From Chloroflexota bacterium (lineage in GTDB: Bacteria; Chloroflexota; Dehalococcoidia; Lucifugimonadales; Lucifugimonadaceae): a DNA stretch of 64,000 nt. Shown here piece by piece: positions 2,305 to 62,600 of this stretch. Numbering within the stretch: position 1 is the first letter of the stretch; every line of letters starts with the position of its first letter. The position numbers and the translations under genes are program-made. The stretch is from contig PBHC01000003.1 in the NCBI GenBank assembly GCA_002719295.1, positions 4,300-68,299 of the forward strand, read 5' to 3'. The notes under the pieces were generated by a model. It had not been told where the DNA came from and searched no databases. It was given only the letters and a program-made list of their open reading frames with translations.

Positions 2305-3798
2305 ATGAATAAAATATTACCAAACATATTAAACTCGGGGCAAGACGAAGATACAGCAATAACTATTCCTGATAATTGTAAAATAAATTATTTTGAACTT
2401 AAAAAGCTAGTAAATGAAACATCTGAAAAGCTCATAGATCATGGAGCTCAAAACGAAAAACCAATTGTAATAGTACTTAAAAATAATGCTGAATTTATAA
2501 TAACCTTTTTAGCTGTAACAAATACAAGTGCAATAGCTGCACCATTAAATTCTGGATTTACAGAAGAAGAGTTTAATTTTTACTTAGATGACATTAATCC
2601 TTCTATGGTTATTACTACAGAAGGAAATCTTGTAATCAAGCAAGCTAAATCAAAAAATATCGCAGTTTCAATTGTTTCATTTGAGAACGGAATGCTAAAA
2701 ATGGACTTTGATTCAAATAAAGTCAATAAAAAAGATACAAACAGACCAAATGAAAATAATTCTTGCCTTTTTCTTCATACTTCAGGAACAACAAGTAGGC
2801 CAAAAGGAGTTCCATTAAAGCATAAAAACTTATTAGAATCCCTTAAAAATATAGTTGATACTTATGACTTAAAAAATACAGATATTGCTATGGTTGTTAT
2901 GCCATTATTTCACGTTCATGGTCTCATAGGAGTAGCTCTATCTACTCTTTCAAGCGGAGGAGAAATCGTTATTCCTGAAAAATTCTCAGCTGGAGCATTT
3001 TGGGGATTGCAAAAAAAACATAATGCTACATGGTACTCTGCTGTTCCAACTATTCACCAAATTTTGTTAATAAGAGCAGAGGAAGATAATGCGCCTAAAA
3101 AATCTTTTAGATTTATAAGGTCGTGTTCAGCTGCATTAGCGCCTTCAGTGCTAGGAGATCTTGAAAAAAGATTTGGAGCTCCTGTATTAGAAGCCTACGG
3201 AATGACAGAGGCATCTCATCAAATGAGTTCCAATCCAATGCCGCCTGAAAAAAGAAAAGCAGGAAGTGTTGGAAAGCCAACTGGAGTAAAAATAAATATC
3301 ATGTCAATGGAAAATATTGGGCAAATGCTTGATAAAAACAAAGTAGGTGAAGTTGTAATTCAAGGAGAAAATGTAACAAGCGGATATCACAATAATGACG
3401 ATGCTAATAAAGAAGCCTATGTGGATGGATGGTTCAGAACAGGAGACCAGGGGTTTTTAGATGATGATGGCTATTTAAACTTAACCGGTAGAATAAAAGA
3501 ACTTATAAACAGAGGAGGAGAAAAAATTTCTCCATTGGAAGTTGATGCTGTTCTATTAAATCACCCAAGTGTAAATGAGGCCGTATGCTTTGCTTCACCA
3601 GATGAAAAATATGGAGAAGTAGTATATGCCGCTTTAGTAATAAACTCTGAAGTATCTGAAAAAGAAATTCAAGAATTTTGCTCAAAATCATTAACAAGTT
3701 TTAAAATTCCAGAAAAAATATTCTTTGCAGATGAGCTCCCTCGAACTGCTACAGGAAAAATACAAAGAAGAAATGTAGCAAAATTTTTTAAAAGCTAG
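2305..3798 (+). CDS. acyl-CoA synthetase, oxalate--CoA ligase-like (AAE3/Pcs60 type)
   Basis: HTSGTTSRPKG, RSCSAAL, YGMTEASHQM, RTGD, TATGKIQR motifs. Confidence 0.85.
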   Translation: MNKILPNILNSGQDEDTAITIPDNCKINYFELKKLVNETSEKLIDHGAQNEKPIVIVLKNNAEFIITFLAVTNTSAIAAPLNSGFTEEEFNFYLDDINPSMVITTEGNLVIKQAKSKNIAVSIVSFENGMLKMDFDSNKVNKKDTNRPNENNSCLFLHTSGTTSRPKGVPLKHKNLLESLKNIVDTYDLKNTDIAMVVMPLFHVHGLIGVALSTLSSGGEIVIPEKFSAGAFWGLQKKHNATWYSAVPTIHQILLIRAEEDNAPKKSFRFIRSCSAALAPSVLGDLEKRFGAPVLEAYGMTEASHQMSSNPMPPEKRKAGSVGKPTGVKINIMSMENIGQMLDKNKVGEVVIQGENVTSGYHNNDDANKEAYVDGWFRTGDQGFLDDDGYLNLTGRIKELINRGGEKISPLEVDAVLLNHPSVNEAVCFASPDEKYGEVVYAALVINSEVSEKEIQEFCSKSLTSFKIPEKIFFADELPRTATGKIQRRNVAKFFKS

Positions 3799-3834
3799 CT
3801 AATCTGATCAAAAATCTAATTCAGGAGTAAAAAT

Positions 3835-4581
3835 ATGAATATCAATATGAAGGGTAAAAAAGTCATTGTAACTGGAGGGTCAACAGGTATAGGAAGAGAA
3901 GTAGTCAAAATTTTTGCTGAAAATCAAGCAAAAGTTGCTATTTTTGATGTTAATAACGAAGAAGGAATGAAATTAACAAATGAGCTAAATAAAAAAAATC
4001 TAGATATAAGATACTGGAATGTAGACGTAAGAGATTCAAATCAGGTTTCAGGAGGAGTTTTAGCTGCTACACAATGGCTAGAAGGAATAGACATCCTTAT
4101 AAATTTAGCAGGTGTCTTACAAGGAGCATCCTTAGAAATAGATGAATTCCCTGATGAAACCTGGGAGTCTGTCATAAGTATCAACCTTACAGGAAGCTAC
4201 TTAATGAGTAAGCATGTTGCTTCTATCATGCAAAAACAAAAAAGTGGCACAATAATTCTAACCAGTTCAGGAGCAGGAGTTTTGGGAAGCTCTTCTTCAT
4301 TTGCATACGGATCTTCCAAAGGAGGGGTCCATGGACTATCACTAGTATTAGAAGATAAATTATCAAAATACGGCATAAGAGTCCACGATATACTTCCTGG
4401 GTCTGTAGATACACCTCTAAAAAATGCTCAAATAGAAACTACTAGAGACATAACAGGAAACGAGAAGGATTATAGCGATATAAAAAAAGTTTTAGCCAGC
4501 CCCAAAGGTGTAGCTAATATTATATATTTTATGTCTTCAGATGAAGCATCACTGTTAAGAGGATCAATACGAACAGCATGA
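3835..4581 (+). CDS. SDR family oxidoreductase
   Basis: TGGSTGIG, NLAG, YGSSK. Confidence 0.9.
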   Translation: MNINMKGKKVIVTGGSTGIGREVVKIFAENQAKVAIFDVNNEEGMKLTNELNKKNLDIRYWNVDVRDSNQVSGGVLAATQWLEGIDILINLAGVLQGASLEIDEFPDETWESVISINLTGSYLMSKHVASIMQKQKSGTIILTSSGAGVLGSSSSFAYGSSKGGVHGLSLVLEDKLSKYGIRVHDILPGSVDTPLKNAQIETTRDITGNEKDYSDIKKVLASPKGVANIIYFMSSDEASLLRGSIRTA

Positions 4582-11369: not shown

Positions 11370-13025
<1,656 letters not shown>

Positions 13026-34728: not shown

Positions 34729-37547
<2,819 letters not shown>

Positions 37548-42589: not shown

Positions 42590-43795
42590 ATGACAAAAGA
42601 TACAAAAAAAATAAATAAACCATCATCAAACGGAAGATTTGGTAAATTTGGGGGCAAGTTTGTACCTGAAACACTAATGTCTTCATTGAAAGAAATTGAA
42701 ACAGCATTTGAAAAAATTTCTAAAGATGACTCTTTTTGGGATGAATTAATTACTTTACAAAAAGATTTTGTAGGCAGGCCTACTCCAATTTATTTTGCTA
42801 AAAATTTATCGAGAAAGCTAAATCAAAATATTTGGATTAAAAGAGAAGATTTAGCTCATACAGGAGCTCATAAAATAAATAATGCATTAGGCCAAGCTCT
42901 TTTGGCAAAAAGGTTAGGCAAGAAAAGAATAATAGCAGAAACAGGAGCAGGACAACATGGAGTTGCCACAGCTACAGCATGCGCAATGCTAAACCTCGAA
43001 TGCATTATTTATATGGGAGAAGAAGATATAAAGCGACAGTCTCCAAACGTTTATCGAATAGAAATGCTTGGAGCTAAGGTGGTGCCTGTGATATCAGGCT
43101 CAAGAACATTAAAAGATGCTTGTAACGAAGCAATTAGAGATTGGGTAACTAATGTTGAAAGTACATATTACATTATAGGAAGCGCTGTTGGGCCGCATCC
43201 TTACCCATATATAGTTAGAGAATTTCAATCAATCATAGGCCAAGAGTCTAGAAAACAAATTCTTGAAAAAACAGGAAAATTACCAGATTATGTTCTTGCT
43301 TGTGTAGGAGGAGGCTCAAATGCTATTGGAATTTTTTCTGGATTTATAGAGGATCCAGCAGTCGAGCTAATAGGAATAGAAGCAAGTGGAGAAGGCATTA
43401 ATACTGAAAAACATGCCGCTACTTTGACTAAAGGAACCCCTGGCATTCTTCATGGATCATTAAGTTATGTTTTACAGGATGATTATGGACAGATACAAGA
43501 AGCTCATTCCATATCTGCTGGATTAGATTATCCAGGAGTGGGGCCTGAGCATTCATATTTAAAAGATATTGAGCGTGCTAAATATTTTTCAGCAACTGAC
43601 GAAATGGCATTAGATGGATTTAAGCTCTTATCAGTTGAAGAAGGGATTATTCCTGCATTAGAACCTGCTCATGCTTTAGGCTTTTTGCTAGATTGGACTA
43701 AGAATCTAGAACCTAATAAAGACATATTGTTTTTGTTATCAGGAAGAGGCGATAAAGATATGGAAACAGTTTCTAAAAAAATAGATTCAAAATAA
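42590..43795 (+). CDS. trpB: tryptophan synthase beta chain
   Basis: [45 protein letters not shown]. Confidence 0.97.
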
Positions 43796-58454: not shown

Positions 58455-59381
58455 TTATTTGTATCTTGGAACATTGTGTTTATTTAAAATATTATCAAGT
58501 TCATTTATTAGGTTTTTTGAAGGCGTTTTTGATGGAGGCCTAGGTGGGCCTGCTTTTAATCCAACTAATTCCATTGCTACTTTTATGAATGGGCCTTCTC
58601 CACCTGTTTCTTTAACCACTTTCCCAACCCATTTCATCCAATCAGATTTAAATCCTGATAAAAGATCTTTAGTTTTTTCATAATTTTTATCAATCATTGA
58701 ATCCCATATTGATTTAGGGTATTCTGGCCAAAAGCTACTTAGGTGAGTAATAAAACCTGTCGCCCCATAAATATTGCTAAGAATATGATTGCCCGAGTTA
58801 TCAATCATTGAAACTTTTTTAGAATATCTTTCAAGTCCTTGTTTAAATAACTGAATGTCTTCGTGACTCCATTTGATTGAATTGACGTTAGGTATTTCGA
58901 CTAACTGATCCAGCAAGTCAAAATCCATAATAAATCCATCCCACCAAGTATGATATATCATTAGATTGACGTCACTCTCGTTTGAAACGTTTTTAAATAA
59001 TTCAAAAACATCGTTTTTTGAAGGCATGTAATAATATGTTGGACCTAATTGACATCCATATATCCCGGCATCCGAGGCAGATGATGCCATTCTATTAATT
59101 TCTCTCCAATCTGTATGCTGAATAGATGTAAGAATAGGAACGCGGTTATCAGCTGTATCTACACCAATTTTCATAAGTTCAATTCTTTCATTTACATTTA
59201 ATGCAGGATGCTCCCCTCCAGCACCACCTATTAGTAAGGTGGAGTTTCCATTTGTAAGCCCTTTATTGATCATAAAGTTTAGATTTGTTTCAAAGGCAGC
59301 GTAATCTACAGTGAAGTCTTCTTTGAAAGGGGTTGCAACTGCAACCATTGGTCCAACTATTTTTTTATCTAGTGAAGTCAT
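58455..59381 (-). CDS. DHDPS/NAL-family aldolase (not canonical DapA)
   Basis: TPF, GAGGE, IYH, IKWS Schiff-base Lys. Confidence 0.85.
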   Translation of the reverse strand: MTSLDKKIVGPMVAVATPFKEDFTVDYAAFETNLNFMINKGLTNGNSTLLIGGAGGEHPALNVNERIELMKIGVDTADNRVPILTSIQHTDWREINRMASSASDAGIYGCQLGPTYYYMPSKNDVFELFKNVSNESDVNLMIYHTWWDGFIMDFDLLDQLVEIPNVNSIKWSHEDIQLFKQGLERYSKKVSMIDNSGNHILSNIYGATGFITHLSSFWPEYPKSIWDSMIDKNYEKTKDLLSGFKSDWMKWVGKVVKETGGEGPFIKVAMELVGLKAGPPRPPSKTPSKNLINELDNILNKHNVPRYK

Positions 59382-59418
59382 GATTTATCCTTAAAGCTAT
59401 TAAATTTATGTTAAGAGG

Positions 59419-59529
59419 TTAAATGTAAGTTTCATTTGACTTATTGTTAATAAGTTCAGTGCAATCACAATCAATGCATCTGCAAGGATTGCATTTACAA
59501 TATTTATTTTCACAACGATCATTTTCCAT
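59419..59529 (-). CDS. 36-aa metallothionein-like Cys-rich peptide, not in ORF track
   Basis: MENDRCENKYCKCNPCRCIDCDCTELINNKSNETYI; 7 Cys with three CxC pairs. Confidence 0.7.
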   Translation of the reverse strand: MENDRCENKYCKCNPCRCIDCDCTELINNKSNETYI

Positions 59530-59569
59530 AAATTATATTCTATTACCTTATTTATAAAAAAACATTATT

Positions 59570-59737
59570 TTATTTAGATTTTACTTTTAGAAGAATGGCC
59601 ATTAATAATAAAACTAAGATTACTATTAGACCTGGAATAATATAAGAGAATTGTATCTCAGTAAAAAAAATCAAATAAATTGTTACCAAAAGTAAACTGG
59701 AAAAACTAATGAAAAGATTGATTTTATATAAATTCAT
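59570..59737 (-). CDS. 55-aa two-TM membrane micro-protein, not in ORF track
   Basis: MNLYKINLFISFSSLLLVTIYLIFFTEIQFSYIIPGLIVILVLLLMAILLKVKSK. Confidence 0.5.
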   Translation of the reverse strand: MNLYKINLFISFSSLLLVTIYLIFFTEIQFSYIIPGLIVILVLLLMAILLKVKSK

Positions 59738-59791
59738 TTTATTGTTTTCTTATATCTTTTGACATCATTATATAAACATTTCATAATAGCC

Positions 59792-61048
59792 TCAGAGTAA
59801 ATTATTTGACAAAATATCATTTACAATAAATTCTGCATCTTCTGCTACACCAATAAATTGAGCAGATTTTGATGAATGCATCCATTGAAGACCCATAAAA
59901 TAAAAACCTAAGAAATTAGTTATTCCTCTTCTTTGCATGGGGTGATTATTGCTATCAGTAATATCAAGATCTATCCAATCATAGTTGTATCTAAATCCAG
60001 TTGACCAAATAATACTGTCATCATTATTTAATTTCAGATTTTTAGTTGAGGAGAAACTATTTGAATTAATTCTTTTATCAGGTTCTAGTTTTTCATATTT
60101 ATTTTCAACTTTGTTGTTTTTTATGTACATATCTACATCTTTAGACCAATTTAAAGCGTATTTATCTGAAAACTTAATATTTTCAAATAAATCATTATTT
60201 ATAACGAGATTATTTTTTTCACATTCTCTAATTGTTCCACATAAATTTAATCCAGATTCTTCTAGATCTAAAAGATTGATATCGTGACCACCTTTGCTTC
60301 CAGATGTGTGAGCACTACATTTCCATCTATCTTCAAAAGGAACTTCATCAACAGTTTTGTCGAATAATCCCATTTCATTATTCCACCATGAAGAATCCTT
60401 ACCCCTGTATCTTCTTGGCCTTCTTCCGCATCTACTAACAGCTAGCCAAACCTCTTTTCCCGATTCCAGTAAATCTTCAGCAATTTGAGCTCCAGATTGA
60501 CCAGAACCAACAACCACAACCTTGCCTTTTTTTAATTGAGAAGAATTTTTATACTCAGAAGAATGAATTTGAAATATTTCACTATTTAGATTAGAGCTTA
60601 TTTTAGGTTTATGAGCTTCACCAAAGGCACCACTTGCTACAACAACTACATTGCAATTGATTATTTGCTTAGATGTTATTACTTTATATTTATTATTTAT
60701 TTTAGAAATATTTTCTACTTTTTCCTTTTCATGAATTTTGGGTCCTATAAATTCAGCAAATGACTGAATGTATTTTATAACTTCTTTTTTATTTAAAAAT
60801 CCATCTGGATTCTCAAATGGAAAATTATTAGAATCAATATCAAATTCAGGAATCTTCATTGCCCAGTTGGGGTTTACTAAATGGAAATTATCCCATCTTT
60901 CATTTATCCAACTATTTCCTACAACACCTTTTTCAATAATAATATGCTTTATATTTTTTTTAGTAAGAAAGTAACTGATGCATAATCCTGCAATTCCAGC
61001 ACCTATTATTACTATTGAAATATCATTTGTTTTTTTTAAAGAATGCAT
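59792..61048 (-). CDS. flavin-containing monooxygenase-like oxidoreductase (CzcO/TrkA type)
   Basis: GAGIAG, W..ERWD, HSSEY, GSGQSGAQIAEDL, WSTGF. Confidence 0.88.
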   Translation of the reverse strand: MHSLKKTNDISIVIIGAGIAGLCISYFLTKKNIKHIIIEKGVVGNSWINERWDNFHLVNPNWAMKIPEFDIDSNNFPFENPDGFLNKKEVIKYIQSFAEFIGPKIHEKEKVENISKINNKYKVITSKQIINCNVVVVASGAFGEAHKPKISSNLNSEIFQIHSSEYKNSSQLKKGKVVVVGSGQSGAQIAEDLLESGKEVWLAVSRCGRRPRRYRGKDSSWWNNEMGLFDKTVDEVPFEDRWKCSAHTSGSKGGHDINLLDLEESGLNLCGTIRECEKNNLVINNDLFENIKFSDKYALNWSKDVDMYIKNNKVENKYEKLEPDKRINSNSFSSTKNLKLNNDDSIIWSTGFRYNYDWIDLDITDSNNHPMQRRGITNFLGFYFMGLQWMHSSKSAQFIGVAEDAEFIVNDILSNNLL

Positions 61049-61065
61049 TTATAGATAATATGAAT

Positions 61066-61911
61066 TTAATGATTGATAATTTTAAGATTATTTTGATCCT
61101 TAAATCTTTCCTTCATTATTTTTATAGCTTGATCATAATTATCAATAAGAATAGCATTTCGTTCGTTCATTATTGCAGCTTCACCTGTTGTTCCCGCTCC
61201 TGCAAAAAAATCTAAAACAGTATCTTTTTTATTTGAATGTACTTTTATTATTCTATTCATAATTGCTATCGGTTTTTGAGTAGGGTAACCCGTTTTTTCT
61301 TTACTATTTGGGCTTACTATAGTGTGCCACCAAGAATCTGTTGGAGTTTTTCCTTTAGCAGCTTTTTCTGGACCTACTAGATTGGGTGCCAAGTATGGAA
61401 TTCTATCTATATCTTCGTAATTAAAAGTATAATTTTTTGGATCCATTGCATACCATAAGATATTGTCATGTTTTGCTGACCATTTGCTTTTACTTCTAGC
61501 TCCATAGTCATAAGACCAAATAATTTCATTTATAAAAGAATCTCTTCCAAAAATCTCATCACACATTATTTTTGCATAATGGATTTCTCTGTAATCAAGA
61601 TGCAAGAAAAAGCTACCATTTGGTTTAAGGATTCTTTTTGCTTCTTTAATTCTTGCTTTTAGGAATTCAATATAATCATCAAAAATATCAGAATAACTTT
61701 GTTTTCCTATTATTTCAGTTTTATAAGATTGTCCCTTAAAACCAATTCTATCTCCATCATCAGATCGTGTGGTTTTTATCTGAGTCCTTGATTGTACTTT
61801 CCCTGTGTTAAATGGAGGGTCTATATAAATTAAATCAATTGAATTAGCTTTGATTTCTTTAAGGATTTTTAGATTATCACCTAGGTGAAGTTCGATATTA
61901 TTATCTGCCAT
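61066..61911 (-). CDS. site-specific N4C/N6A DNA methyltransferase (beta class)
   Basis: DPPF before TQKP and DFFAGAGTT. Confidence 0.92.
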   Translation of the reverse strand: MADNNIELHLGDNLKILKEIKANSIDLIYIDPPFNTGKVQSRTQIKTTRSDDGDRIGFKGQSYKTEIIGKQSYSDIFDDYIEFLKARIKEAKRILKPNGSFFLHLDYREIHYAKIMCDEIFGRDSFINEIIWSYDYGARSKSKWSAKHDNILWYAMDPKNYTFNYEDIDRIPYLAPNLVGPEKAAKGKTPTDSWWHTIVSPNSKEKTGYPTQKPIAIMNRIIKVHSNKKDTVLDFFAGAGTTGEAAIMNERNAILIDNYDQAIKIMKERFKDQNNLKIINH

Positions 61912-62079: not shown

Positions 62080-62247
62080 TTATTTGTTTTTTCGTTTTTG
62101 TTTTAGATTTTCAGAGTAAAGAGTTAAAATAAAAATTCCAATACCTATTATTATCCCTATAAAATATCCTAGTCCGAGCCATAAACCAAAAAAGCTTCCA
62201 ATCACAATCCCGTAAATAATTGCTAATACATATATTCTATATTTCAT
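62080..62247 (-). CDS. 55-aa glycine-zipper membrane peptide, not in ORF track
   Basis: MKYRIYVLAIIYGIVIGSFFGLWLGLGYFIGIIIGIGIFILTLYSENLKQKRKNK; starts 2 nt after the upstream stop. Confidence 0.65.
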   Translation of the reverse strand: MKYRIYVLAIIYGIVIGSFFGLWLGLGYFIGIIIGIGIFILTLYSENLKQKRKNK

Positions 62248-62249
62248 AA

Positions 62250-62600
62250 TTATTTATTTTTTCTAGCTTCAACAAAACTCTTTATAAAAATCAAGATAGA
62301 GAATGAACATGTGGCAATCATTATTAAAAGCCTTAATAGCCCAACTCCTCCTTCATCTAAAGATTTTGGAAGCCTTGTGCCTATAAGGGAGAATAGAATT
62401 AGAATGGTTAGCACTATAGCAACATGTGCAAAAATTAAGTTTAGTTTTTGATTTCTTCTCGAAAGAAAATAACAAATAAAAATAAGAACACCAAATACTG
62501 AAGGTATAAGTGCTGTAGGGGAAGAAACATCTATAAATCCCCAAATTCCCATTAGTACAAGCGAAACAGAATTGATAATGTTAGCTGTTTTTGTATTCAT
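62250..62600 (-). CDS. small four-TM membrane protein
   Basis: SPTALIP..FG, AH, SF..AR motifs; AGGAG RBS. Confidence 0.75.
   Translation of the reverse strand: MNTKTANIINSVSLVLMGIWGFIDVSSPTALIPSVFGVLIFICYFLSRRNQKLNLIFAHVAIVLTILILFSLIGTRLPKSLDEGGVGLLRLLIMIATCSFSILIFIKSFVEARKNK

Follow-up and report, generated by a model that had tools for sequence, protein, structure and literature searches.

A conserved cysteine-rich micro-protein of marine Dehalococcoidia, a candidate minimal metallothionein-like thionein

The micro-ORF and its surroundings

The DNA analyzed here, referred to as the window, is a 64-kb stretch of ordinary chromosomal sequence with a G+C content of ~32%, holding dnaA, gyrB, groESL, glycine-cleavage genes, thrS and citrate synthase. 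Within it, a minus-strand micro-ORF encodes a cysteine-rich protein of 36 aa (MENDRCENKYCKCNPCRCIDCDCTELINNKSNETYI, as translated from the ORF), which is followed by a DHDPS-family gene and preceded by a 55-aa ORF and a flavin-dependent oxidoreductase (Table 1). The seven Cys residues (i.e., 6, 11, 13, 16, 18, 21 and 23) account for 19% of the protein and for 7 of the 18 residues of a core spanning residues 6-23, where they are spaced as C-x4-C-x-C-x2-C-x-C-x2-C-x-C and thus form three CxC pairs with two residues between the pairs. A first-pass annotation of the same DNA had described this 36-aa ORF, its seven Cys in 18 residues, their spacing and the absence of His correctly, leaving the strand unstated. 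As a stop codon lies two codons 5′ of the ATG, the micro-ORF cannot be longer than given here. Hydropathy analysis revealed no hydrophobic stretch in the micro-protein, so that it is probably cytosolic.

Table 1. Coordinates of the micro-ORF, its neighbors and further features of the window.
Feature	Position	Strand	Remarks
DHDPS-family (DapA-like) gene	58455..59381	minus	PF00701, E 5.6e-32; starts 37 nt after the micro-protein stop
36-aa Cys-rich micro-protein gene	59529..59419	minus	ATG at 59529, TAA at 59421-59419
40-nt spacer between 55-aa ORF and micro-protein start	59530..59569	minus	TAGAAT 7 nt before the ATG
55-aa ORF containing two hydrophobic stretches	59570..59737	minus	upstream of the micro-ORF; hydropathy
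Flavin-dependent oxidoreductase (Pyr_redox_3)	59792..61048	minus	upstream of the micro-ORF
N6/N4 DNA methylase gene	61066-61911	minus	PF01555, E 1.1e-50
55-aa hydrophobic ORF	62080-62247	minus	
116-aa membrane protein	62250-62600	minus	weak Tmemb_14 match, E 4e-4, below cut-off
gyrB	34777-37182	plus	
dnaA	40050-41354	minus	

Elsewhere in the window, gyrB and dnaA lie close together, and the lowest G+C content (26-27%) is reached at 38-42 kb. The chromosomal replication origin may be located near this region, as suggested by these sequence features; no clear turn of the cumulative GC skew is seen at this place.

Conservation of the micro-ORF in related genomes

A phmmer search of 1.84 billion (1.84e9) representative proteins at E ≤ 0.001 yielded four matches, each of exactly 36 aa and 67-86% identical to the window protein. 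Furthermore, we scanned 185,579 species genomes for the pattern, which gave 130 matching stretches; tblastn confirmed six of them (loci L001-L006). All six stem from metagenome-assembled genomes (MAGs) whose titles name Dehalococcoidia, Dehalococcoidales, Chloroflexota or the SAR202 cluster. In the following, the seven genomes are the window and these six loci, and the protein alignment comprises nine distinct sequences. An intact ORF of 36 codons is present in each of the six related loci; three different stops are used among them, and one of the starts is GTG. A family HMM run on the six-frame translations of the window and the six loci detected exactly one copy in each and no paralog, the next-best match having an E-value of 0.41.

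The seven Cys are invariant in all nine sequences, and so are ten non-Cys residues (i.e., N8, Y10, K12, P15, E25, K30, N32, T34, Y35 and I36). His is absent from all nine, and two members (L002 and P0003) carry an eighth Cys at position 31. As the family is tiny, the invariance partly reflects close kinship, and the neighboring proteins are 62-98% identical across the relatives.

A frame of such composition might also be a chance ORF in AT-rich intergenic DNA. Of the 1588 stop-to-stop segments that span 20 aa or more in the whole window, 3 reach seven Cys within 18 residues; of 200 first-order Markov simulations of the window, just one did so anywhere. The micro-ORF is the sole intergenic segment among the three. 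The other two are minus-strand frames antisense to groEL (11430-11663) and trpB (42917-42988) and thus by-products of coding on the opposite strand; they serve as a warning that Cys-dense frames can arise in this way. Cys density by itself is weak evidence of a gene, and the start codon in the window lacks a canonical Shine-Dalgarno sequence, which would also fit a chance ORF.

Conservation shows more than chance. The micro-ORF is intact in 7/7 genomes despite saturated synonymous change, and its frame is the only one of six that is open in all of them. Variable columns are distributed over the codon positions as 11, 10 and 32 of 36, and the Cys codons alternate freely between TGT and TGC across the orthologs. 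Nei-Gojobori estimates gave dN values of 0.06-0.27 over 21 pairs; in nine of these dS was saturated and gave no ratio, and the remaining twelve showed a dN/dS well below 1 (0.006-0.435), the highest value belonging to the closest pair with just eight differences. Moreover, Shine-Dalgarno-like sites precede the start in L003, L004 and L006. Intact orthologs, dN/dS and the codon-position pattern refute a chance ORF in practice, leaving it a negligible probability. Our comparison thus shows that the micro-ORF is a protein-coding gene under purifying selection at the protein level. The micro-protein evolves at about the pace of its enzyme neighbors, its 67-86% identity standing beside 74-91% in the DHDPS-family protein and 62-77% in the flavoprotein.

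Within the reach of these searches, the micro-protein is confined to a marine, low-GC lineage within the Dehalococcoidia (SAR202-type Chloroflexota). This corresponds with the first-pass annotation, which had pointed to marine Chloroflexota MAGs as the place to look for homologs with conserved Cys and an undisrupted frame; relatives were found there, and both the Cys spacing and the ORF are preserved throughout the seven genomes. The same annotation had called the micro-protein unannotated. Indeed, none of the sources gives a name to the database clusters that hold it, but it has already been gene-called in public metagenome protein sets.

Scans of the window protein against Pfam and NCBIfam at E ≤ 10 returned no family. 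When all nine members were scanned against Pfam at E ≤ 10, we obtained a single unrelated chance match (E 1.6) and no metallothionein family, with the reservation that HMMER filters may drop weak matches of Cys-biased sequences. Sequence and profile searches of the PDB (E ≤ 10) matched no chain, a PADLOC scan matched no family, and tblastn against phage and plasmid collections gave no match. Likewise, no Rfam family was found in the whole window at the gathering score or in 59300-59850 at E ≤ 1, and a tRNA scan found nothing. The top score in the ESM Atlas was 0.84, among unnamed clusters, and no usable named match was obtained. Thus, the micro-protein belongs to no curated family. AlphaFold2 modeling of the metal-free protein on the nine-sequence alignment gave a pLDDT of 49.2, a pTM of 0.17 and no secondary structure. 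Such a lack of a predicted fold would fit an apo-thionein or a metal-dependent fold, yet it is uninformative and proves nothing.

One database entry (P0006), located on a contig of 605 nt, is a 132-aa protein in which an incomplete DUF6495 domain (positions 1-106 of the 156 in the profile, E 3.4e-42) passes without a break into the very micro-protein sequence that L004 carries. Residues 93-132 of this entry, used as a query for fused forms, matched only P0004 among the shorter proteins and nothing of near or longer length in a search whose word index is insensitive. Most likely, this entry is a chimera made in assembly and not a fusion that exists in nature.

Genomic context across the relatives

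In five of the seven genomes (i.e., the window, L001, L002, L004 and L006), the micro-ORF is located 9-49 nt upstream of the DHDPS-family gene; thrS and citrate synthase come next, and all of these genes share one strand. The DHDPS-family gene, which has its own Shine-Dalgarno-like AAGGA, scored 106 bits against the dapA model TIGR00674 (cut-off 206). As no terminator-like site was called between the two genes in the window, the micro-ORF and the DHDPS-family gene are probably co-transcribed. In L003 and L005 the micro-ORF lies in another context, and the retrieved stretches contain no DHDPS-family gene. Altogether, the micro-ORF occurs in three different contexts across the seven genomes, and in all seven a gene on the same strand follows within ~110 nt.

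Upstream, the first-pass annotation had proposed a small metal/thiol-redox module made up of the micro-ORF, a two-TM micro-protein (the 55-aa ORF next to it) and the flavoprotein. Both neighbors are present on the same strand, but their linkage to the micro-ORF is not conserved. tblastn matches to the 55-aa ORF, whose variable columns by codon position number 12, 0 and 24, were found in three of the seven genomes only (the window, L001 and L002), and in the same three only does the flavoprotein adjoin the locus. In L003 and L005 the flavoprotein lies 2.6-3.9 kb downstream of the micro-ORF, and in L006 it is missing between the Tmemb_14-like gene and the micro-ORF. With the flavoprotein interrupted in L004, out of place in L006 and distant in L003 and L005, we rejected such a module. 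The best NCBIfam match of the flavoprotein is the MSMEG_0569 family, which is not a metal-linked family, at 380.9 bits and below the cut-off of 498; it scored 127.7 bits against the ArsO family.

The interruption in L004 concerns positions 3147-4391, where the flavoprotein ortholog is split into two ORFs (3147-3659 and 3672-4391) that tblastn aligns as one piece. This in-frame break means a pseudogene or an error in the sequence; in the same MAG, the micro-ORF is intact.

Farther upstream in the window, a DNA methylase gene is inserted between the flavoprotein and two small membrane ORFs. Its ortholog in L002 is 91% identical; none was found in L001, where the flavoprotein lies directly next to the small ORFs. 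The methylase gene is thus a variable insertion, and no restriction partner was noticed. The pair of small membrane ORFs is kept in L001 and L006, with L002 having just the 55-aa ORF and L004 just the 116-aa protein.

Another local feature is a 31-nt element with imperfect inverted ends, absent from the window, which lies just upstream of the micro-ORF in L003 (770-800) and just downstream of it in L005 (6115-6145). The first 11 bases of this element are repeated right before the ATG in L005. Its RNA fold is no more stable than that of shuffled sequences (z = 0.33 and -0.59). This arrangement suggests a local rearrangement or duplication around the micro-ORF.

With respect to the start of the micro-ORF, the first-pass annotation had noted a TAGAAT 7 nt before the ATG and taken it as a sign of a leaderless transcript. 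The hexamer indeed ends 7 nt upstream and overlaps a TATAAT that ends 2 nt before the ATG. A nearly identical spacer with TAGAAT is present only in the window, L001 and L002, where the alignment shows it to be conserved better than the coding sequence. A promoter scan of the window called no sigma-70-like site at this spacer, and the -35 candidate 17 nt upstream is a poor hexamer as judged by eye. Shine-Dalgarno-like motifs were found 6-8 nt before the start in L003 (AGGAG), L004 (AAGGA) and L006 (AGGA). A leaderless mRNA is possible in the clade of the window, where it fits the three closest genomes, but judging from the start regions of the other relatives it is not a feature of the family.

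Finally, no metal sensor or regulator, metal efflux pump or transporter, or metal chaperone was found among the neighbors in the seven genomes or, at the level of strong matches (E ≤ 1e-30), in the 64-kb window.

A possible thionein and its alternatives

The reading that we favor, at about even confidence, is that the micro-protein is a minimal, His-free, metallothionein-like thionein, made constitutively. Its periodic core (C...CxC-xx-CxC-xx-CxC) would wrap one small metal-thiolate cluster with, by analogy, room for about two divalent ions or for four to six Cu(I), and the protein would buffer Zn, Cd or Cu(I) or hand them on. Its gene would be expressed from a housekeeping string formed by the DHDPS-family gene, thrS and citrate synthase. 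As the locus is not part of a metal-inducible operon, constitutive buffering appears more likely than inducible detoxification. We infer metal binding, its stoichiometry and the physiological role by analogy with known metallothioneins (MTs).

MTs are proteins of small size and high Cys content, with CxC and CxxC motifs and few aromatic residues, that form metal-thiolate clusters; classical members are poor in aromatics and tolerant of change outside the Cys. The micro-protein conforms to this picture in its size and Cys motifs (36 aa, 7 Cys), and departs from it with Y10, Y35 and its ten invariant non-Cys residues. Furthermore, it matched no profile of the curated MT families in Pfam-A and NCBIfam, be they bacterial, plant, fungal or animal. 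Ten such residues exceed what a generic metal sponge would require, most clearly so Y10 and the invariant K-x-N-[ED]-T-Y-I at the end of the protein, and point to a specific fold or partner. Their role may be in shaping the cluster or in binding a partner; one during translation is less likely. Tyr occurs in some accepted MTs, e.g., that of Yarrowia, and a C-terminal Tyr is reported to stabilize a Cu(I) complex in a fragment of a yeast MT (PMC13107397; sections 3.3.4 and 4 for the latter).

To place the micro-protein, we compared it to four groups of known MTs.

Plant MTs consist of two Cys-rich domains with a long Cys-free linker between them. The micro-protein, a bacterial one, shows no such two-domain build and is made up of one 18-residue, seven-Cys core and a conserved Cys-free tail. 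It shares with the C-terminal Cys-rich domain of plant MTs (types 1-3; Pfam Metallothio_2 according to PMC11151532) the CKCNPCxC motif, the CxC pairs, the small size and the lack of His. The first-pass annotation had recognized this motif as typical of plant and fungal MTs, and the CKCNPCxC stretch of the micro-protein is contained letter for letter in GANCKCNPCNC, a MEME motif found in the MTs of Broussonetia papyrifera (PMC11151532, Table 2). Since no profile match was obtained at E ≤ 10, this likeness resides at the motif level and is probably convergent.

Fungal family-I MTs differ in their Cys spacing and Gly/Ser-rich filling. No sequence match to them was found, and they are devoid of the conserved 13-residue tail. 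Nevertheless, those of Neurospora crassa and Agaricus bisporus are likewise single tiny seven-Cys domains and provide a precedent for a seven-Cys thionein, and such single-domain proteins bind ~six Cu(I) (PMC13107397).

BmtA/SmtA-type MTs carry an N-terminal C-x-C-x-P-C-x-C motif and comprise about 50-80 aa; their Pfam family is Metallothio_Pro (PF02069). The micro-protein has no match in Pfam or NCBIfam and none in the PDB, including SmtA and PflQ2 MT if deposited. It also lacks the His ligands of this type, and no regulator family is present nearby that would correspond to the SmtB/ArsR-type or Zur control of the cyanobacterial systems. BmtA/SmtA-type MTs, including those of Pseudomonas, are likewise bacterial, cytosolic and small, and the Pseudomonas MTs also have no neighboring metal-responsive regulator (PMC7387436). 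They employ His together with Cys in Zn3-4 clusters, e.g., Zn3Cys9His and Cd4Cys9His in PflQ2 MT (PMC7387436), compared to the 36-aa micro-protein without any His.

MymT, the copper MT of Mycobacterium tuberculosis, is a 53-aa protein that contains His. Its sequence and length are unrelated to those of the micro-protein, and no match appeared in our searches. It is likewise a small, lineage-restricted bacterial thionein missed by family models. A role in copper detoxification is described for it (PMC7387436).

The strict conservation outside the Cys could also be explained by a zinc-stabilized mini-domain that acts as an adaptor or regulatory subunit. Here, the metal bound by the Cys core would be structural only, and docking on a partner, possibly the DHDPS-family enzyme, would fall to the invariant K-x-N-[ED]-T-Y-I tail. 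Points in favor of such a subunit are the invariance of ten non-Cys residues, the last three of the protein among them, the position directly upstream of the DHDPS-family gene in 5/7 genomes, with no terminator-like site between the two in the window, and a rate of change near that of the neighboring enzyme. However, the neighborhood alone is weak evidence, the micro-ORF lies in another context in L003 and L005, where the retrieved stretch shows no DHDPS-family gene, and no form fused to a larger protein was found except for the probably chimeric 605-nt contig. We thus regard an adaptor as unlikely, although it deserves to be kept in mind.

A thiol-redox peptide, serving as a sacrificial or recyclable oxidant scavenger or as a disulfide relay with perhaps the flavoprotein as its reductase, appears improbable. 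The high thiol density would suit this role, and a flavin oxidoreductase is encoded on the same strand within 4 kb in six of the seven genomes. Yet redox relays typically use CxxC, and an odd number of Cys with CxC spacing is atypical of them. Moreover, the flavoprotein matches monooxygenase-type families (Pyr_redox_3, MSMEG_0569, ArsO) far above disulfide reductases, and it is adjacent in 3/7 genomes, interrupted in one and absent from its place in another, with the micro-protein intact throughout. Scavenging of reactive species has also been reported for MTs themselves (PMC7387436).

We consider it very improbable that the micro-ORF is a cis-acting regulatory upstream ORF, i.e., a Cys-codon attenuator or a ribosome-arrest peptide that controls the following gene. 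Conservation is highest in its last seven residues, right up to the stop codon, and a same-strand gene lies within ~110 nt downstream in every genome, as such a role would imply. Purifying selection acts on the whole peptide, however, and not on its end alone, the downstream gene differs in L003 and L005, and no Rfam leader or riboswitch was detected at E ≤ 1. The gaps of 9-49 nt in five of the seven genomes are too short for terminator/antiterminator hairpins, and none was called in the window; an attenuator, which needs such hairpins between ORF and gene, was therefore rejected.

Another idea is a metal- or thiol-sensing nascent or regulatory micro-protein in place of a passive metal sponge: its core would fold on metal, and the invariant tail before the stop would couple this state to the expression or activity of the following gene, which in most of the genomes heads the string of DHDPS-family gene, thrS and citrate synthase. 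We give this idea very little weight.

A precursor of a ribosomally made and modified peptide (RiPP) with Cys-derived crosslinks or heterocycles is highly improbable and was rejected: the micro-protein is small and Cys-rich with a conserved C-terminus, but no conserved adjacent maturation enzyme exists, as neither a peptide-maturation enzyme (radical-SAM, YcaO, lanthipeptide or other maturase) nor a protease or exporter family was found among the neighbors scanned in the seven genomes, the genomic contexts are of three different kinds, and the peptide is conserved end to end with no division into leader and core. An Fe-S peptide was set aside only on the Cys spacing, which is unlike the CxxCxxC...CP motifs of ferredoxins.

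To our knowledge, few sequence families of bacterial MTs are known. Those named in the papers cited here are SmtA/BmtA, MymT and the Pseudomonas MTs. We found no paper linking an MT to SAR202, and among the matches listed for MT together with Chloroflexi or Dehalococcoidia, no title concerns such a protein. Since metagenome mining has predicted hundreds of unconventional MT-like genes, many of which confer metal tolerance (PMC11705764), the MT-like kind is already known, and the micro-protein would be a new small variant of it.

As our analysis shows, comparative sequence alone can verify conserved micro-proteins that are shorter than the 40-50 aa at which annotation tools stop; as to the function in the present case, we infer it. 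If the sensing idea were true, it would represent a cis-regulatory peptide of a new kind, responsive to metal, in one of the major bacterial lineages of the deep ocean. If the thionein reading is true, the micro-protein, as a 36-residue His-free thionein, would be the first reported for Chloroflexota and, by the lengths known to us, smaller than any characterized bacterial MT. It would also provide a clean case of convergence on the CKCNPCxC motif of plants. SAR202-type bacteria abound in the dark ocean, so a constitutive thionein could matter to their handling of Zn, Cd and Cu at trace levels.
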